From contig JAFGOA010000114.1 in assembly GCA_016926735.1 (NCBI GenBank), positions 1-23,831 of the forward strand: 23,831 nt of DNA. The letters run 5' to 3'. The notes beneath the pieces are model-generated. The model searched no databases. It was not told the origin of the DNA and saw only the letters and a program-made list of their open reading frames with translations. This stretch comes from Promethearchaeota archaeon (lineage in GTDB: Archaea; Asgardarchaeota; Lokiarchaeia; Sigyniarchaeales; SOKP01). A program made the position numbers and the translations under genes. Numbering within the stretch: position 1 is the first letter of the stretch; each line of letters opens with the position of its first letter. Below are positions 281-13,605 of the stretch, piece by piece.

Positions 281-1021
281 ATGGAAATAGAGTTTTTATA
301 TGAGATTTTTGACACTCTCCCTAGACAAGGACCTGGTGATTCAAAATCAACTCAAAAAGCATATTCTTTTATAGATAATTTACCCCAAAATCCAGAGATC
401 ATCGATATAGGATGTGGTACAGGAGAACAAACAATAGAAATAGCAAAATTATCACAAGGAAACATAATTGGTTTAGATAATTATCAACCATTTCTTGATA
501 AACTAGAAAGGAATGCTAATCTTCAAGGGCTATCTAATGTTAAAACGATCAATAAGTCAATGTTTGAATTAGATTTTCAAGAACATTCTTTTGATATTAT
601 ATGGTCAGAAGGTGCTGTATATATTTATGGATATGAAAAAGCACTTGAAGATTGGAAAAAATTCATAAAAAGTAATGGTTATTTTGTAGTTTCAGAGATT
701 ACATGGTTTAAAGAGAATCCTCCAGAGAATTTAAGGAAGTATTGGGAAAATGAATGTCCAAATATAAAAACTATAGAGGAAAATATAGAGATGATAAAGA
801 AAAAAGGATTCAATTTGATTACTCATTTCAAATTACCAGATTCAAGTTGGTGGGAAAATCTATATAATCCTTTAGAAATAAGATTATCTCTATTAAAGGG
901 AAAATATTTTGGAGATAATGAAAAAATAACTCAATTAAACGATGTTTATGATGAAATTGAAATGTTTCGTAAATATTCAAGTTATTATGGATACACCTTT
1001 TTTGTTACTCAAAAAATATAG
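281..1021 (+). CDS. Class I SAM-dependent methyltransferase
   Basis: Motif I IIDIGCGTG, acidic GLD strand, FDIIWSEGA motif, N-terminal LPRQGPG; 246 aa. Confidence 0.9.
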   Translation: MEIEFLYEIFDTLPRQGPGDSKSTQKAYSFIDNLPQNPEIIDIGCGTGEQTIEIAKLSQGNIIGLDNYQPFLDKLERNANLQGLSNVKTINKSMFELDFQEHSFDIIWSEGAVYIYGYEKALEDWKKFIKSNGYFVVSEITWFKENPPENLRKYWENECPNIKTIEENIEMIKKKGFNLITHFKLPDSSWWENLYNPLEIRLSLLKGKYFGDNEKITQLNDVYDEIEMFRKYSSYYGYTFFVTQKI

Positions 1022-1035
1022 TTTAAATTTTCTTT

Positions 1036-1698
1036 TCATTCTTGGTGTTTTCTTATGTAAAAAATAAAATCTTTATTTTCTCTAATTTTTCGAAGCTTTA
1101 ATATATCAATAAGCAGTTTAACTAATTGAGTTTCTTCATGCTCTGAATATGTAATATATATATCTCTAATAAGCTTTGAATCTACACCTTGAACAAGAAT
1201 TTCTATTTTTTTATATTTTCGATCTACTATTACACTTTTAATATAATTGATACTAAGAAATATTATATTGTTCAGTATTTTTAGAGACTCTGGGACAAAA
1301 AGTGTAAAATCTGTATCAATAAAAAAGTAAAAATTCTTTATAATATAATTTTTATTTGTTATTACTTCATAGGTTTGAAAATTTTTAAGTTCTTTAAAAG
1401 AGAGATCTGAAATATTCTTTATATGGAGATATCCCTCTTGAATTCCAGATATACATAGAAATAATCCATAAATAAGTAATAGGATAATCACTATTAATAT
1501 CCATCCAACATATAATATTAGGACTATCGTTAATACTATCAGAAATAACAATAAAACAATCAGTGGTGTTAATATATAAATAAATTTTAATAGGTTTTCA
1601 TTTTTAATTCCCTTCCACAGAATCCATTCATCATTAAGTAAAAAAGGTTTAAGTTCTTCAAAAATTAATCCTGCATTACATCTTGGCATTATGATCAA
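1036..1698 (-). CDS. Hypothetical membrane protein with two N-terminal TM helices and a possible PH-like C-terminal domain
   Basis: 220-aa ORF. LLNDEWILWKG is followed by two long hydrophobic segments, then a soluble beta-rich region. The PH-like call is inference. Confidence 0.65.
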   Translation of the reverse strand: MIIMPRCNAGLIFEELKPFLLNDEWILWKGIKNENLLKFIYILTPLIVLLLFLIVLTIVLILYVGWILIVIILLLIYGLFLCISGIQEGYLHIKNISDLSFKELKNFQTYEVITNKNYIIKNFYFFIDTDFTLFVPESLKILNNIIFLSINYIKSVIVDRKYKKIEILVQGVDSKLIRDIYITYSEHEETQLVKLLIDILKLRKIRENKDFIFYIRKHQE

Positions 1699-1918
1699 TA
1701 GAAGGAATTATCTGTTTTATATATAAGAATTATATAAAAATATGAATAGTATTTTTAAAAATACTTATTTATCATTCATATTATAATATCAACTCTATAT
1801 ATATTATTTTATATCTGCAATTTTATTCTATAATTATACTATATTCTAATATTTTTAAGAATTTATCAAAAATATCTAAGATATTAGAGAAAAATTATAT
1901 ATTTTAGAATATCATCTT

Positions 1919-2419
1919 CTATTTTGTTAATTCTTTTATCAAATTCTTATTTTCTGGGTATTTATTTATTAATTCCTTTCTTTCTCCCTGAATATAATCA
2001 TTATATTCAAATCCTGGGGCTACAGTTGTACCTAATAGTGCAAAATCGCCTCCATTTATTAATTTTGCTCCTTGCCAAACGTCTTTCGGCACAATTACTT
2101 GAACTTGCATATCATCTAAAATTCTATTACCTAAGATTATTCTTTTACTTGACCCATCAGGATATAATTGCAGCATTTCCACTGGATCTCCAAGATAAAA
2201 ATGAAAAATTTCATCGGATCTAAGTTTATGTATTTCAGAATAGGTATCTTTTGTTAAAAGATAATAGATTGCTGTTCCTATACTTCTTTTGCCGTTATAT
2301 CTTTCTGGAAGGGCTTCTTTTTCTATTATTTCTGAAGAACGATATGTTTCAAAAAAAAATCCTCCTTCTTTTGGATGTGGTATTAGTTTTAATTTTGTTA
2401 TAATTTCTTGTACATTCAT
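1919..2419 (-). CDS. Cupin_5 / DUF985 family protein
   Basis: L.PHP(K)EGG.F.ETYRS, TAIYYLL, H.L.SDEIFHFY.GDP, Q..VP...WQ.A and TVAPGFEY.D motifs. Confidence 0.92.
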   Translation of the reverse strand: MNVQEIITKLKLIPHPKEGGFFFETYRSSEIIEKEALPERYNGKRSIGTAIYYLLTKDTYSEIHKLRSDEIFHFYLGDPVEMLQLYPDGSSKRIILGNRILDDMQVQVIVPKDVWQGAKLINGGDFALLGTTVAPGFEYNDYIQGERKELINKYPENKNLIKELTK

Positions 2420-2569
2420 ATAATCGATTATAATTTATTTTACTTAAAATCATTAATTGAATTTTTAGGATTAATTATAACCTATTTTTTAAGTAGCTAG
2501 TAAAAGGTAAGACCTGATAAAAATAGAAACAAATTTATTCTACTTAAAATTAAATATAATTATATGTAT

Positions 2570-2653
2570 ATGAGACAAATAGAGTGTACCACTCTAACTT
2601 TTGGATTTAAGCCCAAGACAGGGCAAACATTTAACACTGGTTATAAAAATTAA
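2570..2653 (+). CDS. Putative Thr/Lys-rich leader peptide of asd (MRQIECTTLTFGFKPKTGQTFNTGYKN)
   Basis: ATG at 2570 (another in-frame ATG at 2564) to TAA 2651-2653. Has 6 Thr and 3 Lys in 27 aa and lies 240 nt upstream of asd, followed by a C/T-rich tract. Confidence 0.55.
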   Translation: MRQIECTTLTFGFKPKTGQTFNTGYKN

Positions 2654-2893
2654 TCCAATTAAAATCGTCTCTATCGCCTTTTCTATTGTTTTCCGATCTT
2701 TTATTACTTTCAAATCATCACACTTTACCACATGAGATGATTTTATTTAACGATTATTTTTTTATAAAAGAAGATCTATGTAGAGATTTATCGATAATAA
2801 AAGATTTAAAGGGACTTAGTTCAATTAAGGGTCTGTCTAAGCAACTCAGAGGCACAGAACTTAAATTCAATAGACTTTTTATAATAAATAATC

Positions 2894-3985
2894 ATGGAAA
2901 AGATTAATATTGGTATATTAGGAGCTACTGGAATTATTGGTCAAAATTACATCAAATTACTGCAGGATCATCCTTGGTTTCAAATTACAGATCTAGCAGC
3001 ATCTCTTCAATCTGCAGGAAAATCATTTATAGAAGCTGTAAAACATAAATGGCAAATGTCAATACCTATTCCTGAAGAATTAAAAAACTTGATTGTAAGA
3101 GATGTTAAAGATTTTGATTCTATTCCTGAAAATGTTAGTTTTGTGTTTTCTGCTATTAATATGCCATCAAAAGAACAAGTAAAAGAAGTAGAACTAAGAT
3201 ATGCCAAAAATGAAATTCCCGTCGTTAGTAATAACTCTGCACACCGAATGACTTCAGATGTTCCTATGATTATAGGTGAAATAAATCATTCTCATGTCAA
3301 TGTAATTCCTATTCAAAAAAAAAATAGAGAATTCAACAAGGGATTTATTGTAGTAAAACCTAATTGTACTGTTCAAAGTTATCTTACACCAATATATGCT
3401 TTAGAAAAAGCTGGTTATAAAATTGAAAAGTTAATTATTACCACTTTAAATGCACTCTCTGGCGCAGGGTATCCTGGAGTTGCGTCATTGGATATCATAG
3501 ATAATATCATACCTTATGTAGGTGATGGAGAGGAGGAAAAAACTGAGATTGAACCTCATAAAATACTAGGAAAAATAGGTGATAATGGGATCATAAACAA
3601 TGATTCTATCAAAATTAGCGTCACTTCAACAAGGGTACCTATTGTAGATGGTCATACAGCATGTGTTTCTGTAAAATTTAGAGATCAAATACCATCAAAA
3701 GATGAAATTATTAGAATATGGAATGAATTTAAATCACTTCCTCAAGAACTTGATTTACCATTTGCCCCTAAACAACCAATTATATTTTTAGAAAATATTG
3801 ATCGACCTCAACCAAGAAAAGATAGAGATAATGATAAAGGTATGGCAATTTCTGTAGGAAGATTAAGAAAAGACTCAATCTTTGATTATAAATTTATTGG
3901 ATTAAGTCATAATACTATTAGAGGTGCTGCTGGTGGAGCAATTTTAAATGCAGAACTTTTAAAATCTCAAGGATTCATTTCCTAA
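2894..3985 (+). CDS. asd: Aspartate-semialdehyde dehydrogenase (archaeal/fungal type)
   Basis: GATGIIGQ Rossmann motif, SNNSAHRM, catalytic PNC, ALSGAGYPG, RVPIVDGH and HNTIRGAAGGAILNAE. Confidence 0.97.
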   Translation: MEKINIGILGATGIIGQNYIKLLQDHPWFQITDLAASLQSAGKSFIEAVKHKWQMSIPIPEELKNLIVRDVKDFDSIPENVSFVFSAINMPSKEQVKEVELRYAKNEIPVVSNNSAHRMTSDVPMIIGEINHSHVNVIPIQKKNREFNKGFIVVKPNCTVQSYLTPIYALEKAGYKIEKLIITTLNALSGAGYPGVASLDIIDNIIPYVGDGEEEKTEIEPHKILGKIGDNGIINNDSIKISVTSTRVPIVDGHTACVSVKFRDQIPSKDEIIRIWNEFKSLPQELDLPFAPKQPIIFLENIDRPQPRKDRDNDKGMAISVGRLRKDSIFDYKFIGLSHNTIRGAAGGAILNAELLKSQGFIS

Positions 3986-3993
3986 TTTTTTTT
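3986..3993 (+). terminator. Oligo-T terminator after asd
   Basis: T8 run immediately after the asd stop codon, in the 14-bp gap to the convergent gene. Confidence 0.5.
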
Positions 3994-3999
3994 ATTTTA

Positions 4000-5274
4000 T
4001 TATTTTAAATAGAATTCTGTGTCATCTTGATTAAATTCTCCAGTGATTTCTCCTTTCCCTATTAAATCAAATATAATTCCTATAATTTTGTCTGGCTCAA
4101 TTTTTAAAAATCGTTGAATATAATCAATTTTAACATTTTTCTTTACTTTAATTATTCCTAATATTCTATCTTCAAAATTAACTTTCTCAATTTCTTCAAT
4201 TAATCCTTGCTTTTTTTTGGAATAATGAGTATCGAATTTATCTGAGGAAATTTCTTTTTGGTCTACATATGAGGATTCTTTTTTCATTACATTATCCTCA
4301 TATTTAATACTTTCATTTTTAATTTCAGTGTTCATTAATGAATTTTCTTCTATTTGAGCTTCATTAATTTTAATTGATTGTTCGAGTAAGGGACTTTTCT
4401 CCATTAACGTTCCTATTAACGGGGTAGATTCATAACTTAATTCTAAAACTTCTGCTAAAATCCTGATCATTCTATCACGATTTTCATTACGATTAGCAAC
4501 CATGGGATAGGTTATCAACCCTAATTCTTTTTCAATATCTTTTATATCCATGGCTCCTTTTAAATCCTGTTTATTTCCTATAACTGCTGATCTTGCATAT
4601 GGAACTTCCTTTTCTATTAAATCAATAAAAAATTTGCTTTTTTCTATATTATTTAAAGTTGAATCTGTGATAACTAAAACACCATCGCTACCCTTTATAA
4701 AACTCTTCCATAAATAACGAAATTGTTCCTGGCCTGCAAAATCAAAAAGATTAAAAAATAGATCTCCAATCTTGATTGTTGCGATATCTCCAGTAATAGT
4801 TGGGATATGATAAGTAGGGATTTTATCAAGTTTTATTAGTTGTTTTGTGGTTGTTTTTCCTACACCTGAGAAACCAACAATAGATATCTTTGGTTTTAAT
4901 TTTCTATGGAGAGGATCTGCAATTGAATTTATAATATCAGTTTGGTCTTGTGTTAATTTATCATGTATTTGGTTAAAATTAACCTTATCAAATACTTCTT
5001 GTTTGAAAAGAGCTAGTTCTGGTTTAATAGTACTAAAATAATCATCTACTAACCCTGTAATAAATAGAAAAATTAATTCTTTTTCTATATCAACATCATA
5101 TGATACTCTAAACTTAAAATAATCAAAATGATCTGTATTCTTTTCAATTCTCCTTTTAAGTATTTGCCATATTTTATAGCTGAGATCTTCTATTTCTGAA
5201 TCTGATAAAGCATTGCTAAAATATCTTTTGTATAGAAAATCATTTTTTTTTAAAATTATAATCTGCCTTAACAT
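4000..5274 (-). CDS. Asgard small GTPase fusion: longin-like N-terminal domain, Arf-like GTPase, C-terminal winged-helix/PCI-like domain
   Basis: G1 GFSGVGKTT, G2 PTI, G3 DFAGQ, G4 NKQD. About 125-aa N-terminal beta-beta-alpha domain. C-terminal IFDLIGKGEITGEF resembles a winged helix. Confidence 0.85.
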   Translation of the reverse strand: MLRQIIILKKNDFLYKRYFSNALSDSEIEDLSYKIWQILKRRIEKNTDHFDYFKFRVSYDVDIEKELIFLFITGLVDDYFSTIKPELALFKQEVFDKVNFNQIHDKLTQDQTDIINSIADPLHRKLKPKISIVGFSGVGKTTTKQLIKLDKIPTYHIPTITGDIATIKIGDLFFNLFDFAGQEQFRYLWKSFIKGSDGVLVITDSTLNNIEKSKFFIDLIEKEVPYARSAVIGNKQDLKGAMDIKDIEKELGLITYPMVANRNENRDRMIRILAEVLELSYESTPLIGTLMEKSPLLEQSIKINEAQIEENSLMNTEIKNESIKYEDNVMKKESSYVDQKEISSDKFDTHYSKKKQGLIEEIEKVNFEDRILGIIKVKKNVKIDYIQRFLKIEPDKIIGIIFDLIGKGEITGEFNQDDTEFYLK

Positions 5275-5442
5275 ATTGAAAATAAGGATATTTATTGATC
5301 TTTGTAATTTTTATATTAATATCACAAATGATTTCACATATAAATCTCTGCAAAAGAATAATTTTAAAATTTAAATAATAGCAACGATAAATGACTTATA
5401 ATTTTGATGAAAAGTACTATTTAATAGAATACCTTTTACCAA

Positions 5443-6663
5443 TTAAAAGGTTATAGATAATTCTGTGTTGTCTTCATTAAATTCACACTCAATTAGACCA
5501 TTTCTTATAAAATCAAATATATAGTTAATAATTTTATCTGGCTCTATTTTTAATAATCTTTGGATAAAATCAATTTTAACTGATTTTCTGCCTTTCAATA
5601 AAGCAAGTAATCTTTCTTTATAGAGCATATCACTAATCTCATCTTTTAATCCCTGCTTTTTTTCTTGATAATATTCATTTAAATGCTCATCTACCTCCTC
5701 ATTTAATTCTGCATAATGGTCATTTGAATTTTTTTCTTTTTCCATTTCTTTTTTTAATTGAATTGTACTATCCAAATAATGACTTTGCTCAACTAAAGAA
5801 TCAATAAGTGGCGTAGATTCATAACTTAAATCTAAAATTTCTGCAATTATATCTATCATTTTATCATGGTTTTCAATTCTATTAGCAATCATAGAATAGG
5901 TTTTAATCCCTAAGATCTTTTCAATTTCCTTAATATCCATTGCACCTCTTAAATCTTGCTTATTTCCTATTATTGCAGCTCTAGTATGTGGGACCTCGTT
6001 TTCAATTAATTCTAAGAAGAATTTACTTTCATAAACATTATCTTGAGTAGAATCAGTTACGATCAAAACAGAATCACTTCCTTTAATAAATGTCTTCCAT
6101 AGATATCTGAACTCTTCTTGTCCAGCAAAATCAAAAAGATGAAAAAAAAGATCTCCAATTTTAATTGTAGCAATATCCCCCGTTATTGTAGGTACATGTT
6201 GCAAAGGAATTTCATCTAATTTAATTAATTGTTTTATAGTCGTTTTTCCAACTCCAGAAAAACCAACAACAGCAATTTTGGGTTTTAAATTCCTATGCAT
6301 TGGATCAGCTATAGAATTTAATTTAGCTATCTCAGAATTAGAAAGCTTATTTTTTTTTGGTGAAATTTCAATCGATTCGAAAAATTGACTTATAAATATT
6401 GTTAATTGAGGTTTAATTGTTCTAAAATAATCATCTACTAAACCTGTAACAAACATAAAAATTATCTCTTTTTCTATGTCTACCTCATAAGCAATTCGAT
6501 ATTTGAAATAATCTGAATGGTTTGTTGTTTTTTCAAGCTTCTTTTTAGCGATATTCCATATCTTAAAGCTTAGATCTTCCACTTCAGAATCGGTTAAAGC
6601 ATTTCCAAAACTTCTTCTATAAATTATTTCATTTTTTTTAATCACAAAAATTTGTCTAAGCAT
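5443..6663 (-). CDS. Paralogous Asgard small GTPase fusion (longin-like + Arf-like GTPase + winged helix)
   Basis: Same motifs (GFSGVGKTT, PTITGD, DFAGQ, GNKQD) and collinear similarity to 4000..5274 except in the acidic linker. Confidence 0.85.
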   Translation of the reverse strand: MLRQIFVIKKNEIIYRRSFGNALTDSEVEDLSFKIWNIAKKKLEKTTNHSDYFKYRIAYEVDIEKEIIFMFVTGLVDDYFRTIKPQLTIFISQFFESIEISPKKNKLSNSEIAKLNSIADPMHRNLKPKIAVVGFSGVGKTTIKQLIKLDEIPLQHVPTITGDIATIKIGDLFFHLFDFAGQEEFRYLWKTFIKGSDSVLIVTDSTQDNVYESKFFLELIENEVPHTRAAIIGNKQDLRGAMDIKEIEKILGIKTYSMIANRIENHDKMIDIIAEILDLSYESTPLIDSLVEQSHYLDSTIQLKKEMEKEKNSNDHYAELNEEVDEHLNEYYQEKKQGLKDEISDMLYKERLLALLKGRKSVKIDFIQRLLKIEPDKIINYIFDFIRNGLIECEFNEDNTELSITF

Positions 6664-6829
6664 TTTTCTACTATAAGAAAATAGATATTTTCTTTTATAT
6701 GTATATTGTTTTATAGTACTGAAAGCAAACTTCTATCATAGAAAAAGTCAAAATTTCCATTTATAGCTTTTCTTTTTTTTATGAAAAAAAAAATACTTTT
6801 AATATCTTGAAAATCGATATAATACTATC

Positions 6830-6988
6830 ATGACAGAATGTCCAACTTGTGGGAAAGATACTGTAGTAGAAGTCACTTCTGGTAGTTCTAGCACTTGGGG
6901 TTTTTGGTGTTTGAAATGTAATAGTAAATGGTTAGTGAAGTTAGGAAGACGTGAATCAATAGATACCTTATGGTATAAAATTGAATAA
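6830..6988 (+). CDS. Small zinc-ribbon protein (CPxCG type), 52 aa: MTECPTCGKDTVVEVTSGSSSTWGFWCLKCNSKWLVKLGRRESIDTLWYKIE
   Basis: ATG 6830 to TAA 6986-6988, CPTC…CLKC knuckles, TATA-like TTTTAATA at 6797-6804, downstream oligo-T at about 6997-7013. Below the ORF-track size cutoff. Confidence 0.75.
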   Translation: MTECPTCGKDTVVEVTSGSSSTWGFWCLKCNSKWLVKLGRRESIDTLWYKIE

Positions 6989-7085: not shown

Positions 7086-7157
7086 AACATCCGGTGGGAT
7101 TTGAACCCACAATTGATTGCTTCGAAGGCAATTGTCCTATCATTAGACGACGGATGC
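7086..7157 (-). tRNA. trnR: tRNA-Arg(UCG)
   Basis: Acceptor GCATCCG/CGGATGT; anticodon arm ATTGC-CT TCG AA-GCAAT; T arm GTGGG-TTCAAAT-CCCAC. Confidence 0.9.
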
Positions 7158-7181
7158 ATGTTTTAAATCAATAATTTTTAA

Positions 7182-7255
7182 AGAGTCAGAGGGGATTCGA
7201 ACCCCTGAAATAGACGGTTAAGAGCCGCCTGCCTTAACCTCTTGGCTACTGACTC
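7182..7255 (-). tRNA. trnK: tRNA-Lys(CUU)
   Basis: Acceptor GAGTCAG/CTGACTC; anticodon arm GGCGG-CT CTT AA-CCGTC; T arm AGGGG-TTCGAAT-CCCCT. Confidence 0.92.
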
Positions 7256-7348
7256 GTTTCTGATCCTAATCATTAAATTGGAAATTTTATTTTTTAATTT
7301 CTACATCTTTTTTTTTGAATTGGTAATTTCTTAGTTATAAACAATTGA

Positions 7349-7424
7349 TAGGGATGGTGAGATTCGAACTCACGACCTTCGCTTTATAAGAACGATGATC
7401 TCTAAACCACTAATCTACACCCCC
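7349..7424 (-). tRNA. trnI: tRNA-Ile(UAU)
   Basis: Acceptor GGGGGTG/CATCCCT-A; anticodon arm TCGTT-CT TAT AA-AGCGA; T arm GTGAG-TTCGAAT-CTCAC. Close paralog of the Ile(GAU) gene at 8044. Confidence 0.9.
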
Positions 7425-7520
7425 ATTTTTATTATATTTATTCCATGGAATTAAAATGTGCAATTGATTGTTTAGAATATAATAATTCAATTATTTACCA
7501 CATTCGATGATATTAATTAA

Positions 7521-7596
7521 TAGAGGTGTTGGGATTTGAACCCAAGTTTTCCGGCACATGAAACCGACGTCTTCCACCAAGCTAGACCACACCCCT
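7521..7596 (-). tRNA. trnM: tRNA with CAU anticodon (Met; A1:U72, atypical)
   Basis: Acceptor AGGGGTG/CACCTCT-A; anticodon arm TCGGT-TT CAT GT-GCCGG; T arm TTGGG-TTCAAAT-CCCAA. Confidence 0.8.
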
Positions 7597-7607
7597 ATTA
7601 TTATTGA

Positions 7608-7678
7608 TGGGAGTAATTGGATTTGAACCAATGCTACTGGGTTTGGAATCCAGTCTAATTCTCCTATATTATACTCCC
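7608..7678 (-). tRNA. trnW: tRNA-Trp(CCA), intron-less, weak D arm
   Basis: Acceptor GGGAGTA/TACTCCC-A; anticodon arm CTGGA-TT CCA AA-CCCAG with an A·C mismatch; T arm ATTGG-TTCAAAT-CCAAT. Confidence 0.78.
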
Positions 7679-7692
7679 ATTCTTTCTAAAGA

Positions 7693-7765
7693 TAGGAGAG
7701 GTAGGAATCGAACCTACGAAAACCTCCTTGTAAGGGAGGGACAATAGCCGCTATGTGACTCCCCT
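7693..7765 (-). tRNA. trnV: tRNA-Val(UAC)
   Basis: Acceptor AGGGGAG/CTCTCCT-A; anticodon arm CCTCC-CT TAC AA-GGAGG; T arm GTAGG-TTCGATT-CCTAC. Confidence 0.9.
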
Positions 7766-7777
7766 AAATCTAAAATA

Positions 7778-7849
7778 TACACCCAGTAGGATTTGAACCT
7801 ACATTTTATTGCTTAGAAGGCAATTGTCCTTTCATTAGACGATGGGTGT
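7778..7849 (-). tRNA. trnR: tRNA-Arg(UCU)
   Basis: Acceptor ACACCCA/TGGGTGT-A; anticodon arm ATTGC-CT TCT AA-GCAAT; T arm GTAGG-TTCAAAT-CCTAC. Confidence 0.9.
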
Positions 7850-7873
7850 TTATTTTATTCTAATTTTAAATAA

Positions 7874-7946
7874 AGAGTCAGAGGGGGTTTGAACCCCTGA
7901 AATCGGCGGTTAAAGGCCGCTTGCTTTACCACTTAGCTACTGACTC
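7874..7946 (-). tRNA. trnK: tRNA-Lys(UUU), with C33
   Basis: Acceptor GAGTCAG/CTGACTC; anticodon arm (A)GCGG-CC TTT AA-CCGC(C); T arm AGGGG-TTCAAAC-CCCCT. Confidence 0.87.
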
Positions 7947-8043
7947 TTATTTATTTTTCATATTCTCTCAATATTTTATTACAATAATTTTCATCTTTAT
8001 CTCCTTTACTATTTGACCTCTCATTCTTGATTAATATTTAAAT

Positions 8044-8122
8044 TGGTAGGGATGGTGAGATTCGAACTCACGGCCTACGCTTTATCAGAACGTTGATCTT
8101 TAACCCCCTGATCTACATCCCC
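8044..8122 (-). tRNA. trnI: tRNA-Ile(GAU), with encoded 3' CCA
   Basis: Acceptor GGGGATG/CATCCCT-A-CCA; anticodon arm ACGTT-CT GAT AA-AGCGT; T arm GTGAG-TTCGAAT-CTCAC. Confidence 0.93.
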
Positions 8123-8209
8123 TTATTTTTTATCTTCACACATCCTGTGATATAGTCTTATTCTTGCTTCTATTATCTTTTTTCTAATAAAATACTTCTT
8201 ATATTTTAA

Positions 8210-8311
8210 TGGAGTTGATAGGACTCGAACCTATGCCCTCTCGAATTTCAATTTCGACCATCTCATATAAGAATGATTGTCGAAGGTCCTTCCCCATTAG
8301 ACGACAACTCC
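8210..8311 (-). tRNA. trnF: tRNA-Phe(GAA) with a 28-nt intron at position 32/33 (intron 8251-8278)
   Basis: Acceptor GGAGTTG/CAACTCC-A. BHB-type motif TTCG-ACA-ATCAT…ATGGT-CGAA-ATT. Splicing gives TTCGA-CT GAA AT-TCGAG. T arm ATAGG-TTCGAGT-CCTAT. Confidence 0.88.
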
Positions 8312-8321
8312 TTGATTTAAA

Positions 8322-8393
8322 CGCTCCTAGTATGATTCGAACATACGCCACACTGGGTAACAACCAGGAACACTACCACTATGCTATAGGAGC
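8322..8393 (-). tRNA. trnN: tRNA-Asn(GUU)
   Basis: Acceptor GCTCCTA/TAGGAGC-G; anticodon arm (C)CTGG-TT GTT AC-CCAG(T); T arm GTATG-TTCGAAT-CATAC. Confidence 0.9.
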
Positions 8394-8511
8394 ATAATTT
8401 TATATCTAATTCTATGATATGAAAGTAATTTTTCGAAGAATTATATAGTAAAGGGATAAGAAGTCAAATCATAAGGTAAATCGTTGTTTCTGAAGGAATT
8501 TATGGATATAA

Positions 8512-8589
8512 TTATCGTTTAAATCGATGCATTTTAATAATATTTACAAAATGCCAATTCATCCTTATCATAAATATACGATTGACCAT
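8512..8589 (-). CDS. Putative leader peptide of tRNA array 1 (MVNRIFMIRMNWHFVNIIKMHRFKR)
   Basis: ATG at 8589, 30 nt after TTTAAATA (8619-8612, - strand), stop TAA at 8514-8512. 23 of 25 residues are amino acids with a tRNA in the downstream array, and all eight are present. Confidence 0.65.
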   Translation of the reverse strand: MVNRIFMIRMNWHFVNIIKMHRFKR

Positions 8590-8611
8590 AATATTATCAA
8601 TGCATGTTATA

Positions 8612-8619
8612 TATTTAAA
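8612..8619 (-). promoter_or_regulatory. Candidate TATA box of the leader + tRNA array 1 transcript
   Basis: TTTAAATA on the - strand with an A-rich upstream stretch (GCAAAATA), at leaderless-mRNA spacing from ATG 8589. Confidence 0.55.
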
Positions 8620-8645
8620 TATTTTGCTAGAATATATTCTTATCA

Positions 8646-8691
8646 TTAAAATGGGAAAAGAATGGGCAAGATTGGAAGGAGAATTTAAATA
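8646..8691 (+). promoter_or_regulatory. Repeated upstream motif TTAAAATGGGAAAAGAATGGGCAA plus TATA (TTTAAATA, 8684), copy 1
   Basis: 22/24 identical to 12046-12069, with the same +33 offset from the first ATGGG to a TATA box. Confidence 0.6.
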
Positions 8692-8811
8692 TCTTAGATT
8701 CTTTTCTTAATAACAATAATATAAAATTTAAGAATGATCTTAAGTTACATAGGCGTATAAGTGAGATCTATTATATTATGATATAATTCAAAAATTTATA
8801 AAAAAAGTGTA

Positions 8812-11800
8812 ATGAATGAAAAAAAGATAAATGAATATATTACCCTACGATTAGAAAATAGAGATACAAATATTTACATCAATGAAGAGCTTTTTATTCA
8901 ATGTAAATATCTTCTTTTAAATATTTCCCTTGAAGATGTGCATGAATATGAGGAAATTGGTTCTATTGATGAAGCTGTTGAGAGACTAAATCATGATTTG
9001 GAATTTGGTAATAAATATTCAATAAAACCTGAAACTGAATTTTGGGCTCATTGCTCTAATTTGCAAGTATGGGTAGAACATGATTATGATACTCGAATTC
9101 TACATAGTAACTTATCATTTCCATTACTAAGAAAATTAAGTGAAATTGGAGATCCAAAAGCTAATAGGATATTTAAAGATGAAATAATAAGTAGACTTGA
9201 GAGTAAATATATCCCTGTTATCAGATATCTTATTATTCAAGGATATATGGAGTATTTTACAAAAGAGGAGTTAGATATTATTTATGAAAATCTAGGATTA
9301 GACTATGTAACTGTTCATAATGAAAAAATACCCATTTTGGAGAATGAATTAGATTTATATGGAAAAGAAATAGAAAATATCAATGAAATCATTGGTCTTA
9401 AAAATATTAAAATTTTAAAACTTTCTATTCATGATAATCATATTTCAAGCATAGAAGGACTAGAACATCTAACAAATTTAGAAAGTCTAGATCTAGGGGC
9501 AAATAACATTACTGAGATAAAAAATCTTGATTCTCTAATTAATTTGAAACAATTATTTTTAGACTATAATAATATCGATGAAATTAAAGGATTAGATAAA
9601 TGTAAGGAACTTAAAATGTTAAGAATCTCTGGAAACAAAATTAAAGAAATTAATGGATTGATTGAACTTCATAATCTTAATACTTTAGACCTTCGAGTAA
9701 ATAATATAACATCCACTAAAGGAATAGAAAATCTAAAATTTTTAAAAGACTTAGATCTTTCAAGCAATAAAATTAGTGAATTAGAAGGAATAGCGAAACT
9801 TGAACATCTTGAATCCTTAGATCTTGGAAGCAATCTTATAAGAGAAGTTAAAAATTTGAAAGATCTAAATAAATTAAAACAATTAAATCTAAATAATAAT
9901 AAAATAAGAGATATAAGTTACATAGGGAAGTTGAGTAATCTTGAAAAATTGGATCTTTATAATAATCAAATTATTAAAATCAAGGGTTTGGAGAATTTAA
10001 AAAACTTAAAAATTTTAGAATTATCAAATAATAATATTAAAGAAATACAAAATCTAGATCATTTTACACATTTAGAAATACTTCGACTTACACATAATTC
10101 CATTTCAGAAATTAAGAACTTATCCTTTCTAACCAATCTAAAAGAACTTTATCTCTCTGATAATAAAATTGATGAAATTAAAGAATTAAACAATCTAAAA
10201 AAACTAAATACACTTGCTTTAGAATATAATATAATCACTGAAATTAAAGAAGTATCTCATCTTATAAACTTAGAGCGTTTATACCTTGCTTATAATAGAA
10301 TTAATAACATAAAGGAATTAGATAACTTTTCAAAACTAGAAACTCTTCTTTTAGGTTATAATAAAATAAATAAAATTGATGGCCTCTCTAAACTAACTAA
10401 TCTTACAACATTGAATCTTATTGGTAATGAGATAAAAAGAATTGAAAATCTAGATACATTGAATAAATTAATTAATTTAAACTTAGACTTTAATAAAATT
10501 CAAATTATTGAAGGATTAGATAAATTAATAAATCTCATTTATTTACACTTAAATCATAATCAAATAAAAGAAATTCAAGAATTAGATACCTTAGCAGAAT
10601 TAAATAGTCTTTATCTTAATAATAATTGTATTTCAGAAATTAAAGGATTAGAAAATCTTTCAAAATTACTATATTTATCCCTCACTAATAATAAAATATC
10701 TAAAATTCAAGGTTTAGATAATCTTAAACAATTAACTAATTTATATCTTGATAATAATCAAATTATGAAATTAGAAAACTTGAATAATTTAATAAATGTG
10801 ACTTCTTTAAGTTTTTCATCAAATTTTATTGAAGAAATCAATAGTTTGGATAAACTTAAAAAAATTAGTTATCTTAATTTTCAAAATAACAAAATTAAAC
10901 ATATTAAAGGGTTAAATAAACTAAAATTTCTAAGTTCAGTTACATTAACAGATAATCATATTTCAAATGTCCAAGGATTAGAGAATTTAGAAAATTTAAT
11001 AAGTCTATATTTGGGTAAAAATAACATTAAAATGATTAATGGTCTAGATGAATTAAAAAAATTAGAGAAATTAGATCTTTCATACAATAAAATTAAAGAA
11101 ATAAAAGGTATTCAAAATTTATTAGAACTACATTATTTATATTTATCTTCAAATCAAATAACTGAAATTAAAAATTTAGCCCTCTTAAAAAAATTAGATA
11201 CTTTAGATCTTTCAAATAATAAAATTACTAAAATACAAAATTTAGAGCATCTAATTAATCTAAATTATCTTTTCCTTTCCAAAAATATTATATCTAAAAT
11301 TCAAAATTTAGATTCATTAACTAAATTGAGAGAATTATATCTTAGTTCAAATAGGATAAAAAAGATAGAAAATATAGAAAAGTTATCAAATTTATTTTAT
11401 CTAATTCTCAATAATAATAAAATTACCGAAATTGAGAATTTAAAATCTTCTAAAGAACTAATAAAATTAAATTTATCACATAATCAGATTTCAAAATTAA
11501 CTAATCCTCAAAATCTTTTAAATTTAATTGAGCTTGACCTTTCAAATAATAAAATTAGTGAATTTAATGATATAGGTTGTTTAAATCTTACAACATTAAA
11601 TCTCGAAAATAATTTAATCAAAGAGATCAAAAACCTTGATAATTTAAATTATTTAGAAATTTTAAATCTTTCTGAAAACCAAATTAGTGAAATAATGAAT
11701 TTGGATCTATTAATAGATTTAACAACACTTAATATTTCTAAAAATCAAATTATTGAAATAAAAGGATTAGAAAAATTGACGCAACTTCAGTATTTAAAGA

Positions 11801-11907
11801 TATATGGGAATCAAATCTCATATAGACTTATAGAACAATTAGGTGGTTATAATGATGATGATAATGCAGCCATAATTGAAAATTTTATTGATTATTGTTC
11901 TGGATGA
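8812..11907 (+). CDS. Large leucine-rich-repeat protein (SDS22/internalin-like) with Lokiarchaeia-type N-terminal domain
   Basis: N-terminal PETEFWAHCSNLQVWVEHDYDTRILHSNLSFPLL domain, then roughly 37 22-aa repeats of the form LxxLxLxxNxIxxIxxL. Confidence 0.9.
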   Translation: MNEKKINEYITLRLENRDTNIYINEELFIQCKYLLLNISLEDVHEYEEIGSIDEAVERLNHDLEFGNKYSIKPETEFWAHCSNLQVWVEHDYDTRILHSNLSFPLLRKLSEIGDPKANRIFKDEIISRLESKYIPVIRYLIIQGYMEYFTKEELDIIYENLGLDYVTVHNEKIPILENELDLYGKEIENINEIIGLKNIKILKLSIHDNHISSIEGLEHLTNLESLDLGANNITEIKNLDSLINLKQLFLDYNNIDEIKGLDKCKELKMLRISGNKIKEINGLIELHNLNTLDLRVNNITSTKGIENLKFLKDLDLSSNKISELEGIAKLEHLESLDLGSNLIREVKNLKDLNKLKQLNLNNNKIRDISYIGKLSNLEKLDLYNNQIIKIKGLENLKNLKILELSNNNIKEIQNLDHFTHLEILRLTHNSISEIKNLSFLTNLKELYLSDNKIDEIKELNNLKKLNTLALEYNIITEIKEVSHLINLERLYLAYNRINNIKELDNFSKLETLLLGYNKINKIDGLSKLTNLTTLNLIGNEIKRIENLDTLNKLINLNLDFNKIQIIEGLDKLINLIYLHLNHNQIKEIQELDTLAELNSLYLNNNCISEIKGLENLSKLLYLSLTNNKISKIQGLDNLKQLTNLYLDNNQIMKLENLNNLINVTSLSFSSNFIEEINSLDKLKKISYLNFQNNKIKHIKGLNKLKFLSSVTLTDNHISNVQGLENLENLISLYLGKNNIKMINGLDELKKLEKLDLSYNKIKEIKGIQNLLELHYLYLSSNQITEIKNLALLKKLDTLDLSNNKITKIQNLEHLINLNYLFLSKNIISKIQNLDSLTKLRELYLSSNRIKKIENIEKLSNLFYLILNNNKITEIENLKSSKELIKLNLSHNQISKLTNPQNLLNLIELDLSNNKISEFNDIGCLNLTTLNLENNLIKEIKNLDNLNYLEILNLSENQISEIMNLDLLIDLTTLNISKNQIIEIKGLEKLTQLQYLKIYGNQISYRLIEQLGGYNDDDNAAIIENFIDYCSG

Positions 11908-12045
11908 TTGTTTTACATCTATCTCTAAAAAAGGCTACTTTTTATTTTAATAAATTTTTTATTTTTCAATTTTAAATAGATATCAAATTAAAAAGGTATC
12001 TAAATATATTTTTCTTAACTTTAATACTCATTTAAATTAAAAAGC

Positions 12046-12091
12046 TTAATATGGGAAAAGAATGGGTAATTTTGAGCGAAATCTTTATATA
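12046..12091 (+). promoter_or_regulatory. Repeated upstream motif TTAATATGGGAAAAGAATGGGTAA plus BRE/TATA (GCGAAATC-TTTATATA, 12084), copy 2; promoter of tRNA array 2
   Basis: Strong TATA with a purine-rich BRE-like stretch, motif shared with 8646-8669, and ATG 33 nt after the TATA start. Confidence 0.65.
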
Positions 12092-12116
12092 TATATGGTA
12101 TAATATAAATTATAAC

Positions 12117-12218
12117 ATGAGACGAGTATATTATGTGGGAACTTTTACCCCACAACCAAATACAGAAGCGGACCCTACAGATCAGGGTGCCCAATATAGC
12201 GAATGCTATAGATATTAA
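12117..12218 (+). CDS. Putative leader peptide of tRNA array 2 (MRRVYYVGTFTPQPNTEADPTDQGAQYSECYRY)
   Basis: ATG 12117 to TAA 12216-12218. 24 of 33 residues (24 of 29 after codon 4) are A/Q/Y/D/G/T/C/E/P. It has no Leu, Ile or Lys despite the AT-rich genome. Confidence 0.65.
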   Translation: MRRVYYVGTFTPQPNTEADPTDQGAQYSECYRY

Positions 12219-12330
12219 AGTATTTGAATTCTTGTCTGTCGCTTTCTTCAATCTCTTTAACTTTAAATTCTACTTGCTTCATATAATAAATCAAAATTCT
12301 CAGATGAGTAGATTCAATAACTTTATAAAA

Positions 12331-12401
12331 AGGTGAGTAGTGTAATAGTAGCATTGGAGTCTGTGAAGCTTCAGGTGGTGGTTCAAATCCTCCCTCACCT
12401 T
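12331..12401 (+). tRNA. trnH: tRNA-His(GUG), atypical (no G-1/C73)
   Basis: Acceptor AGGTGAG/CTCACCT-T; anticodon arm GGAGT-CT GTG AA-GCTTC; T arm GGTGG-TTCAAAT-CCTCC with a T·T mismatch; D loop lacks GG. Confidence 0.78.
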
Positions 12402-12480
12402 CTATAATGAGTATCAAATAAGAAAAATCAAGAGAAAGCACTATAAGGACGGTTTGAAAAAAGCTTACGTTAATATAAAT

Positions 12481-12553
12481 GGGGCTGTAGTTTAATTGGA
12501 AAAATTAACAGTTTTGCAAATTGTTGCTGTGGGTTCAAATCCTACCAGCTCCA
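12481..12553 (+). tRNA. trnA: tRNA-Ala(UGC)
   Basis: Acceptor GGGGCTG/CAGCTCC-A with the G3·U70 Ala determinant; anticodon arm ACAGT-TT TGC AA-ATTGT. Confidence 0.9.
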
Positions 12554-12563
12554 CTAAAATCAT

Positions 12564-12637
12564 ACCCCCGTCGTCCAGTGGACAAGGACGCCTGACCTTG
12601 GATCAGAAAACGCAGGTTCGAATCCTGCCGTGGGGTA
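12564..12637 (+). tRNA. trnQ: tRNA-Gln(UUG), with C33 and a 1-nt acceptor-stem bulge
   Basis: Acceptor ACCCCCG/CG(T)GGGGT-A; D arm GTCC…GGAC; anticodon arm (C)CTGA-CC TTG GA-TCAG(A); T arm GCAGG-TTCGAAT-CCTGC. Confidence 0.82.
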
Positions 12638-12661
12638 TCCTTTAAATAAATGATATAAAAT

Positions 12662-12733
12662 CGGACCGTAGCGTAATGGTATCGCAACAGACCGTAGATC
12701 TGGAGATTGCTGGTTCAAATCTGGCCGGTCCGA
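12662..12733 (+). tRNA. trnY: tRNA-Tyr(GUA), with C33, intron-less
   Basis: Acceptor CGGACCG/CGGTCCG-A (archaeal/eukaryotic C1:G72, A73); anticodon arm (A)CAGA-CC GTA GA-TCTG(G); short variable arm. Confidence 0.88.
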
Positions 12734-12742
12734 TTAATAATT

Positions 12743-12813
12743 GGGGCTCTGGTGTAGCGGTAGCAAAGAGGGCTGTCGCCTCTCTGGTGGGGGTTCAATT
12801 CCCCCGTGTCCCG
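12743..12813 (+). tRNA. trnD: tRNA-Asp(GUC)
   Basis: Acceptor GGGGCTC/GTGTCCC-G; anticodon arm GAGGG-CT GTC GC-CTCTC; T arm GGGGG-TTCAATT-CCCCC. Confidence 0.87.
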
Positions 12814-12835
12814 TTGATTGGAAAAGTAATATAAA

Positions 12836-12911
12836 GCGAGATTACTGTAGTTAGGTTAAGCAGCATCGCCTTCCAAGTGAATGAGGGAGGGTTCAAATCC
12901 CTCATCTCGCA
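12836..12911 (+). tRNA. trnG: tRNA-Gly(UCC)
   Basis: Acceptor GCGAGAT/ATCTCGC-A; anticodon arm (A)TCGC-CT TCC AA-GTGA(A); T arm GAGGG-TTCAAAT-CCCTC. Confidence 0.88.
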
Positions 12912-12919
12912 TTAAAAAA

Positions 12920-12994
12920 GCCCCCATAGCATAGTTAGGATAATGCAGCTTCCTTGTAAGTAGCAGATCGTGGGTTCGAATCCCATTAGGGGCT
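12920..12994 (+). tRNA. trnT: tRNA-Thr(UGU)
   Basis: Acceptor GCCCCCA/TAGGGGC-T; anticodon arm GCTTC-CT TGT AA-GTAGC; T arm GTGGG-TTCGAAT-CCCAT. Confidence 0.88.
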
Positions 12995-13047
12995 TTATTT
13001 TGGAAATAAAGACGAGATATATATTATAAAAATAAACAAATAAAAAT

Positions 13048-13120
13048 GCACGTGTGGCTGAGAGGATTAAGCAGGAAAATGCAAATTTCTGAAACACAGG
13101 TTCAAATCCTGTCGCGTGCT
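13048..13120 (+). tRNA. trnC: tRNA-Cys(GCA)
   Basis: Acceptor GCACGTG/CGCGTGC with U73 (Cys determinant); anticodon arm GGAAA-AT GCA AA-TTTCT; T arm ACAGG-TTCAAAT-CCTGT. Confidence 0.9.
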
Positions 13121-13151
13121 TTAAAAAAAATAAAAAAAGAGTGAATAAAAA

Positions 13152-13361
13152 TTGATAGATTTGTGTTTACAAAAAGACATTTTGATTGTAAAAATAAAAA
13201 AAAAGGCTTCAAAATTAGGAAAATTATATTTAGACATAATGATGGAAGGAGAATCTAATGATTCTAAAGGAAAATCTATTCATTTAGCAATATTTAAGCA
13301 GGATAATGATGTGTTTCTAGAATCAAATATGCTAACTATGATTATAAATGAGAATATTTAA
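13152..13361 (+). CDS. Small hypothetical protein inside tRNA array 2
   Basis: 69-codon frame (TTG start, GAGTGA upstream) that fills most of the Cys-Glu spacer in the array's orientation. No recognisable motif. Confidence 0.4.
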   Translation: MIDLCLQKDILIVKIKKKASKLGKLYLDIMMEGESNDSKGKSIHLAIFKQDNDVFLESNMLTMIINENI

Positions 13362-13371
13362 TTTTTTTTTT

Positions 13372-13446
13372 GCTCCTGTCTTTCTAATTGGTTAAGGATG
13401 TTCGACTTTCAATTGAACGATGTGGGTTCAAATCCCGCCAGGAGCT
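13372..13446 (+). tRNA. trnE: tRNA-Glu(UUC)
   Basis: Acceptor GCTCCTG/CAGGAGC; anticodon arm TTCGA-CT TTC AA-TTGAA; T arm GTGGG-TTCAAAT-CCCGC. Confidence 0.88.
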
Positions 13447-13532
13447 TTATCACTTTATGTAATAAATATTATTTACACATACAGTTTTGGATTATTAAAC
13501 AGGAAATGAATTATTATTAAAGATAGCAATGA

Positions 13533-13605
13533 GGGAGTGTAATGTAGTGGTTAGCATCCAAGCTTTGGAAGTTTGTTATCGAAGGTTCAAATCCTTCCAC
13601 TCCTA
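13533..13605 (+). tRNA. trnP: tRNA-Pro(UGG)
   Basis: Acceptor GGGAGTG/CACTCCT-A; anticodon arm CAAGC-TT TGG AA-GTTTG; T arm GAAGG-TTCAAAT-CCTTC. Confidence 0.88.

Follow-up and report, generated by a model that had tools for sequence, protein, structure and literature searches.

Leader-peptide attenuation is the textbook bacterial control of amino-acid biosynthesis, represented by trpL, hisL, leuL, thrL, ilvL, pheL and the pheM leader of pheST. The locus considered here is a window of 23,831 nt (the whole stretch of DNA analysed; GenBank assembly GCA_016926735.1, contig JAFGOA010000114.1, positions 1 to 23,831) from a Promethearchaeota archaeon, which carries two divergent arrays of tRNA genes, each headed by a short open reading frame (ORF), hereafter leader, whose amino acids are largely those of the tRNAs downstream. 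As in the bacterial attenuators, a short same-strand ORF lies between the promoter and the genes that would be regulated (in all 19 leader copies compared), is rich in codons tied to those genes (here at the level of amino acids) and stands within or beside mutually exclusive RNA pairings (predicted here for leader 2), and the logic would require coupled transcription and translation. Unlike them, the archaeal leaders have a promoter composed of a B recognition element (BRE) and a TATA box with a near-leaderless start, the candidate targets are tRNAs and not enzymes or synthetases, 2, 8 or 10 amino acids are sampled in place of a run of one residue, no conserved hairpin-plus-U terminator is found, and the system is known from sequence alone.

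A second relative is the mycobacterial Cys 'ribulon', a set of leaderless polycysteine short-ORF attenuators (bioRxiv 10.1101/834739). In that system a leaderless short ORF forms the first cistron, as is predicted here, several loci obey one sensing principle, and stalling on cognate codons remodels an RNA duplex, which is the logic proposed below. The mycobacterial elements described there differ in being bacterial, in sensing one amino acid and in unmasking the ribosome-binding site of a protein gene (translational control); a downstream ribosome-binding site of this type has no counterpart at our locus, where the downstream genes are tRNAs. T-box riboswitches, too, regulate translation-apparatus genes according to the state of a specific tRNA, as proposed here, but they are RNA-only, bacterial and built on a single specifier codon, and no T-box match was found in the window. 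The arrays themselves resemble the known tRNA arrays of bacteria, phages and archaea (dense runs of 5–16 genes separated by a few to about 100 nt), with 11, 10 and 5 densely packed same-strand genes in this genome and up to 16 in a relative (G181). In the part of a tRNA-cluster survey that was available, archaeal clusters are reported only in two euryarchaeal classes, and the words 'leader' and 'promoter' are absent from that text (PMC6333295); no leader ORF is described for known tRNA arrays in the portions of the literature covered. Full-text literature searches returned no leader-peptide control of tRNA genes, no leaders of this kind in Asgard archaea and no demonstrated archaeal case of leader-peptide attenuation. 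By this comparison the system appears to share the logic of known attenuators and to differ from them in domain of life, promoter type, tRNA targets and the sampling of many amino acids.

Leader ORFs and the amino acids of their arrays

The source genome (3.88 Mb, 26% GC, 238 contigs, of which the window is contig C157) contains 49 Rfam tRNA matches, 21 of them in the window. The leaders and arrays of the window are as follows.

8512–8589, minus strand: leader ORF 1, 25 codons, 23 of 25 residues cognate to array 1
7086–8394, minus strand: tRNA array 1, 11 genes (ARAGORN and Rfam)
12117–12218, plus strand: leader ORF 2, 33 codons, 24 of 33 residues cognate to array 2
12331–13605, plus strand: tRNA array 2, 10 genes (ARAGORN and Rfam)

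Array 1 comprises Asn, Phe, Ile GAT, Lys TTT, Arg TCT, Val, Trp, Met, Ile TAT, Lys CTT and Arg TCG; ARAGORN in its default mode gives 10 of these, and the intron-bearing tRNA-Phe (8210–8311) was recovered by Rfam and by the ARAGORN intron mode. Array 2 runs His, Ala, Gln, Tyr, Asp, Gly, Thr, Cys, then an ORF of 69 codons and a T10 run, and finally Glu and Pro. Leader 1 contains all 8 amino-acid types of its array, the two remaining residues being His, and its Ile and Arg codons are ATA (twice), ATT (twice), CGT, CGA (twice) and AGG. Leader 2 contains 9 of the 10 types of array 2, with His missing, and has no Leu, Ile or Lys at all. A first-pass annotation of the window, made from the letters alone, had described these two ORFs, the arrays behind them and the residue and type counts, and had proposed that the pairs form an attenuation-like sensor of tRNA charging; translation, ARAGORN and Rfam returned the same ORFs, arrays and counts.

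The same annotation had cautioned that AT bias alone could favour such a composition and had called for a permutation check. As the null we used 13,423 ATG-initiated ORFs of 20–45 aa from the same genome, matched in GC within 0.05, and shuffles of each ORF's own nucleotides with in-frame stops rejected (20,000 rounds). Genome ORFs have a mean array-1 fraction of 0.53 (sd 0.11) and none of 6,512 reaches the 0.92 of leader 1; their mean array-2 fraction is 0.35 (sd 0.10) and none of 1,305 reaches the 0.73 of leader 2. Cognate fractions of the copies tested are 0.92 and 0.88 for leader 1, 0.73, 0.67 and 0.67 for leader 2, and 0.67, 0.67 and 0.65 for leader 3 (introduced below; 0 of 6,964 GC-matched ORFs reach its fraction), and over all three leaders none of the 1,003–6,964 GC-matched ORFs attains the observed value. 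Mononucleotide shuffles agree (leader 1: 0 of 20,000; leader 2 of the window: P = 1.5e-4; leaders 1 and 3: P at most 5e-5; leader 2 across the genus of the window: 1.5e-4 to 9e-4). The other five frames of the same DNA score 0.27–0.62 for leader 1 and 0.30–0.50 for leader 2, and 0.00–0.67 over all three leaders tested. By these comparisons the cognate signal is specific to the reading frame and is not a product of base composition, and AT bias is not its cause.

If leader composition is tied to array content, an array of other tRNAs should carry a leader of other composition. A third array of five genes lies on contig C42 (Ser GCT, Ser TGA, Leu CAA, Leu TAA, Leu TAG) and thus supplies exactly the two amino acids absent from the arrays of the window; a Leu/Ser-rich leader was therefore expected there, and one was found. 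The 618 nt upstream of this array contain only two ATG-initiated ORFs of at least 8 codons, one of which ends with 13 Leu or Ser among its last 14 residues. Comparison with two congeners delimits the conserved leader-3 ORF, which starts at an internal ATG or GTG 34 nt after a TATA box and has 20–21 codons with 13–14 Leu or Ser; in the genome of the window Leu or Ser makes up 14 of 21 residues, and in the counterpart from another genus (G177) 14 of 25. At 21 dispersed tRNAs of the genome that were inspected by eye, no cognate-rich ORF was seen upstream. A Pfam search with the two leader peptides of the window retrieved no family.

Competing frames at the second leader were considered and rejected. 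Reading from an in-frame ATG at 12051 would give a 55-aa version of ORF 2; this ATG precedes the TATA box, and in two congeners (G002 and G001) stop codons interrupt the added stretch. Two antisense ORFs (12021–12251 and 12175–12441) were set aside as well, the antisense frame across ORF 2 having stops in G001.

Persistence, promoters and RNA pairings in three genera

When 400 genomes of the phylum were searched with blastn, arrays turned up in 8 genomes besides that of the window, and 391 of the 400 were without a match at E <= 1e-8; diverged arrays may escape blastn. The search placed the same divergent pair of arrays in two further genera of the family, so that the comparison covers genus g1 (the window genome with G001, G002 and G003), genus g5 (G181, G183 and G185) and genus g6 (G177). 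Array identity to the window genome is about 94% in G003 and about 70% in G001 and G002. Exact-pattern scans of metagenome and genome collections added no lineages beyond those already known, four DNA runs examined contained only G003-like variants of the locus, a search for RNA runs carrying the locus listed none, and a tRNA-model scan of 13 genomes, with 150 of its 413 matches listed, does not rule out arrays in those genomes.

Every orthologous array compared has an open leader (all 7 sequences for leader 1, all 8 for leader 2 and all 4 for leader 3), as the sensor proposal predicted. All 19 copies have 20–33 codons and a stop codon 112–232 nt before the first tRNA. Their lengths change in frame only: leader 3 of G001 differs by an indel of 3 nt, and copies of leader 2 have 33 or 29 codons. 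From base composition we estimate about 0.09 stops per codon, so that at least 24 codons would stay open by chance with a probability of about 0.1 per independent lineage.

The strongest result of the analysis is that the leaders change in composition with the content of their arrays. Genus g5 has its Leu and Ser tRNAs at the far end of array 1 (10 nt past tRNA-Lys in G181), and its leader 1 contains 11 of 28, 7 of 25 and 6 of 25 Leu or Ser residues. In g1 and g6 the Leu/Ser tRNAs form a separate array with its own Leu/Ser-rich leader, and leader 1 contains 0, 0, 1 and 0 of 25, against a genome background of 0.21. Scored by the array content of its own lineage, leader 1 is 0.88–0.96 cognate in all 7 copies (shuffle P from 0 of 5,000 to 0.0016). 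We read this as one clear gain or loss coinciding with one fusion or fission of arrays. Residues also turn over within the cognate class: Leu and Ser replace each other at three positions of leader 3, and in the variable 13 codons of leader 2 11–12 remain cognate though most residues differ.

The elements around the leaders, on which the following paragraphs draw, are listed here.

8612–8619, minus strand: array-1 promoter, TATA box TTTAAATA reaching from 30 to 23 nt ahead of the ATG
12074–12091, plus strand: BRE-like GAGCGAAA and TATA box TTTATATA of the array-2 promoter, TATA starting 33 nt before the ATG
8651–8666, plus strand: upstream element, first copy of a 16-mer, about 30 nt past the TATA box of array 1
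12051–12066, plus strand: upstream element, copy 2, an identical 16-mer ending 18 nt before the array-2 TATA box
8395–8511, minus strand: spacer from leader 1 to tRNA-Asn, poorly conserved apart from a few islands
8474–8485, minus strand: leader-1 spacer block, +27 to +38 after the stop, with complementarity to the 5' end of ORF 1; the partners covary between genera
12120–12126, plus strand: region 1 of leader 2 (codons 2–4), complementary to region 2
12224–12238, plus strand: region 2 of leader 2, +6 to +20 after the stop, able to pair with region 1 or region 3; a T/C-rich tract follows it
12301–12317, plus strand: region 3 of leader 2, able to pair with region 2 from its 3' side, with compensatory changes in two base pairs
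12134–12154 and 12195–12210, plus strand: conserved hairpins inside leader ORF 2

The spacing of the TATA boxes given in the first-pass annotation was confirmed. A BRE-like purine stretch and a TATA box are common to arrays 1 and 2 (the array-1 TATA box, preceded by a purine-rich BRE-like stretch, is kept in G001 and G177), and TATA boxes begin 30–34 nt before the start codon in all 19 leader copies. This geometry predicts a transcription start site (TSS) within about 4 nt of the ATG or GTG. A scan for bacterial sigma-70 promoters was uninformative (45 promoter-like sites versus 45.2 expected). The upstream 16-mer contains two GGG triplets 11 bp apart and has only two exact copies in the genome; in g5 and g6 one or two copies of the element lie between the divergent promoters in either orientation, and upstream of array 3, at an equal distance, stands another element, a palindrome. 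We infer that these elements are putative protein-binding sites for coordinate control.

Complementarity between the first 16 nt of the leader ORF and a conserved island past its stop codon is seen in most lineages. The resulting duplex of 5' end and spacer is found for leader 2 in 8 of 8 sequences, for leader 3 in 4 of 4 and for leader 1 at a common position in 5 of 7, and it involves nucleotides +23 to +38 after the stop in leader 1, +9 to +26 in leader 2 and +2 to +14 in leader 3. The partner sequences of leader 1 differ between genera, with complementarity kept. RNAalifold applied to the 8 leader-2 sequences retained a single hairpin since the spacers misalign, and duplexes were therefore computed per sequence. 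Pairing of regions 1 and 2 of leader 2 is kept in 100% of the alignment cells, with three one-sided G-U changes and no two-sided change. Pairing of regions 2 and 3 is kept in 93%, with 2 compensatory pairs in the alignment of the genus; this duplex has energies of -14.7 to -24.8 kcal/mol in 8 of 8 sequences, matched by 0–6 of 300 shuffles, and region 3 lies 14–40 nt before tRNA-His. The two pairings of region 2 are mutually exclusive, which gives leader 2 an attenuator-like topology. For leaders 1 and 3 only the helix between 5' end and spacer was detected, with no second pairing. The island is followed by a T/C-rich tract, which for leaders 2 and 3 lies at +17 to +40 in most lineages.

Transcription units, duplicate tRNAs and neighbouring genes

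On the transcribed strand of array 1 no run of at least 5 T occurs until a T6 directly past the last tRNA, and in array 3 a T7 and a T5 run are confined to the leader spacer and followed by a T8 after the array; with internal runs of this length absent, each of these arrays looks like a single unit transcribed from the leader promoter.

Arrays 1 and 2 are separated by only 580–608 nt in g5 and g6. In the window a gene for a leucine-rich repeat (LRR) protein of 1,031 aa (8812–11907, plus strand) stands between them, and the short distance in the other two genera identifies it as an insertion specific to genus g1. The 16-mer is present once on each side of this gene (at 8651 and 12051). The ORF of 69 codons inside array 2 (13152–13361, plus strand, between tRNA-Cys and tRNA-Glu) is kept across genus g1, where it starts with TTG in the window and with ATG in G001 and G002, and the contiguous arrays of g5 and g6 are without it. 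Its product matches no Pfam family and has only two close homologues in the protein collection.

ARAGORN assigns the anticodon TAT (UAU) to the tRNA-Ile at 7347–7425 (minus strand), which has counterparts in G001, G177, G181 and G185; AUA is usually decoded in archaea by a modified CAU anticodon. At least 8 array anticodons also occur in dispersed genes of the same genome, outside the window (Gln TTG, Ile GAT, Val TAC, Lys TTT, Glu TTC, Gly TCC, Ala TGC and Leu TAG, on contigs C17, C40, C90, C69, C151, C192, C8 and C116). Matches longer than 95 nt, i.e. of intron-bearing size, make up 12 of 23 dispersed tRNAs versus 1 of 26 in arrays. Because anticodons are duplicated and the dispersed copies are more often intron-sized, the arrays may form a second, intron-poor set of tRNAs. 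An intron-bearing tRNA-Asp GTC (contig C42, 8358–8492, plus strand), which duplicates the Asp anticodon of array 2, is divergent from the Leu/Ser array and about 600 nt away from it. In g6 a pair of Lys CTT and Phe GAA genes (G177, contig C215, L052, 2510–2863) is divergent from the Leu/Ser array, and both the pair and that array lie on the same contig as arrays 1 and 2.

Proteins encoded in the window include Arf-family GTPases, long LRR proteins and WD40 proteins. Two adjacent genes on the minus strand (4000–5274, 424 aa; 5443–6663, 406 aa) encode Arf/Roc-type small GTPase domains that are extended at length on their N- and C-terminal sides, and one of the two has a weak match to the PCI domain.

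A candidate ribosomal sensor of aminoacyl-tRNA supply

Each leader is probably translated in cis as a sensor of the aminoacyl-tRNAs of the array behind it and would set the output of that array. In the mechanism we propose, a BRE/TATA promoter would drive each array, with the transcript beginning at or within about 4 nt of the leader start codon, and the first thing transcribed would be a near-leaderless ORF of 20–33 codons built almost wholly from the amino acids of the downstream tRNAs. Since the ORF is built from those amino acids, a ribosome following the polymerase would sample exactly the aminoacyl-tRNA supply of the array. Its position would set the fold of the leader RNA, in which either the 5' end pairs with the block past the stop codon or, in leader 2, that block pairs with the third segment, and the fold would set how much of the transcript runs into the array or survives as such. 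The sensor interpretation offered by the first-pass annotation is supported by our results, every computational check that it suggested having come out in its favour.

As for the sign of the response, given that the leaders are sensors, a homeostatic one is somewhat the better supported: shortage of an aminoacyl-tRNA would stall the ribosome, and the stalled ribosome would lead to more array RNA. The argument for it is that only negative feedback specific to the product explains why codons of amino acids outside the array have been purged. The arrays would then stand under product-specific ribosomal feedback, in which a leaderless 'test strip' ORF is read and the progress of the ribosome sets the output, and they might constitute an inducible second set of tRNAs; the evidence tips slightly towards this fuller picture. 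Because at least 8 array anticodons are also found in dispersed genes, several of them with predicted introns, the arrays could be switched on when the primary set runs short.

A variant of the same sensor with the opposite sign is a somewhat less probable alternative. In such a stringent-like checkpoint, a smoothly translating ribosome would carry the polymerase through the T/C-rich tract 20–40 nt past the stop codon, and a stalled ribosome would allow the helix between 5' end and spacer to form and transcription to terminate, so that tRNAs would be made only when they can be charged. The position of the tract, after region 2 and one ribosome-plus-polymerase length past the stop, is consistent with this, as is the helix, which ends just ahead of the tract, and a match to amino acids but not to isoacceptors would suit a sensor of charging. 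Most archaea are not known to have guanosine tetraphosphate (ppGpp), yet their stable RNA synthesis falls on starvation. On the other hand, positive feedback on tRNA supply would be unstable, global starvation offers no reason to purge non-cognate codons leader by leader, although they are purged, and the T tracts are short and unconserved.

Several observations count against a translated sensor. Long stretches of leader 2 are invariant in nucleotide sequence, synonymous changes being almost absent, and its hairpins inside the ORF carry compensatory changes, which points to constraint at the level of RNA; part of its cognate match is structural and inflates the signal, because GC-rich stems encode Gly, Ala and Pro, all of them array-2 amino acids. 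Together with the long-range helices, these features would suit 5' leader RNAs that are structured and untranslated, acting in processing, stability or protein binding, with the reading frames as a by-product of the RNA constraint. We nevertheless regard this explanation as improbable. It does not account for a frame-specific match in three different leaders, for conserved start and stop codons and in-frame length changes, for the replacement of Leu by Ser and vice versa, or for the gain of Leu and Ser in leader 1 exactly where the Leu/Ser tRNAs join array 1.

Other observations on the RNA count against the sensor as well. The helix between 5' end and spacer of leader 1 is weak or placed elsewhere in G181, G183 and G001 (matched by 146, 107 and 86 of 300 shuffles), and folding of single sequences is unremarkable (z -1.26 for leader 2 and -0.54 for leader 1). 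A scan for bacterial-type terminators found none in the leaders. Archaeal termination requires U tracts only; the T runs of the spacers vary by lineage, and because runs of at least 5 T occur only in some lineages, no conserved terminator, with hairpin or without, can be named in the leaders. In the window the T10 run abutting tRNA-Glu cuts Glu and Pro off from the rest of array 2; these two genes may therefore form a transcription unit of their own, and yet leader 2 retains codons for both.

Further reservations concern the compositional match. The first-pass annotation had read the paired Ile and Arg codons of leader 1 as corresponding to the isoacceptor pairs of array 1; the codons are as it described, but a match at the level of isoacceptors does not clearly exceed gene usage. 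In the four- and six-codon families, array anticodons could by standard wobble read 47 of 73 codons in leader 1, 36 of 68 in leader 2 and 46 of 55 in leader 3, about what gene codon usage predicts except in leader 3, and hence the match is to amino acids and not demonstrably to the isoacceptors of the arrays. In leader 3 the Leu codons are spread over the array isoacceptors, unlike gene usage (a score of 0.41 akin to the codon adaptation index, in the lowest 0.2% of long-ORF windows). Leader 2 of G177, G183 and G185 is just 0.48–0.55 cognate (shuffle P 0.12–0.41); it still holds 9–10 of the 10 amino-acid types, and all ten types are present in 5 of 4,382 genome ORFs of similar length (P 0.02–0.07 in shuffles of own composition). 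In G183 ARAGORN gives Ser but no Leu tRNAs in array 1, yet leader 1 has 3 Leu. Only three genera carry the leader-array system and their lineages are related, so that the counts given above stand for few independent evolutionary events. Finally, translation of the leaders, the TSS and the 3' ends of the transcripts, coupling of the ribosome to RNA polymerase, the regulated step and its sign are what we infer from the features observed.

Two remaining explanations fare worse. Leader triplets that correspond to the amino acids of the downstream tRNAs could in principle pair with anticodons directly, without a ribosome, as in a T-box with many specifiers. We consider this very improbable: an Rfam scan of the whole window with E up to 1 gave tRNAs and weak chance matches only, with neither a T-box nor another family in the leaders, the signal is limited to one frame from start to stop, and contacts of three bases need a scaffold, of which none is evident. 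An independent function of the small peptides, or plain coincidence, is equally hard to credit: conserved small ORFs are common and the C-terminal half of leader 2 is kept across genera, but a peptide function sits badly with free turnover within the cognate class, including hydrophobic-to-polar changes between Leu and Ser, and with the empty Pfam search, and coincidence with the joint probabilities, with the independent evidence of the third array and with the way in which the leaders follow array content.

The cis-acting sensor therefore remains the explanation that we prefer. If true, it would be the first case of leader-peptide attenuation shown in Archaea and the first for tRNA genes in any domain. 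Cells would gauge the supply of tRNA or aminoacyl-tRNA by means of the ribosome itself and feed the result back on the expression of tRNA genes, which would provide a link, independent of ppGpp, between stable-RNA synthesis and aminoacyl-tRNA supply or translation status. The shift of leader composition as tRNAs move between arrays is a natural experiment that can be extended to new relatives as they appear. In the archaeal lineage closest to eukaryotes, the coupling of transcription and translation would then serve regulation.

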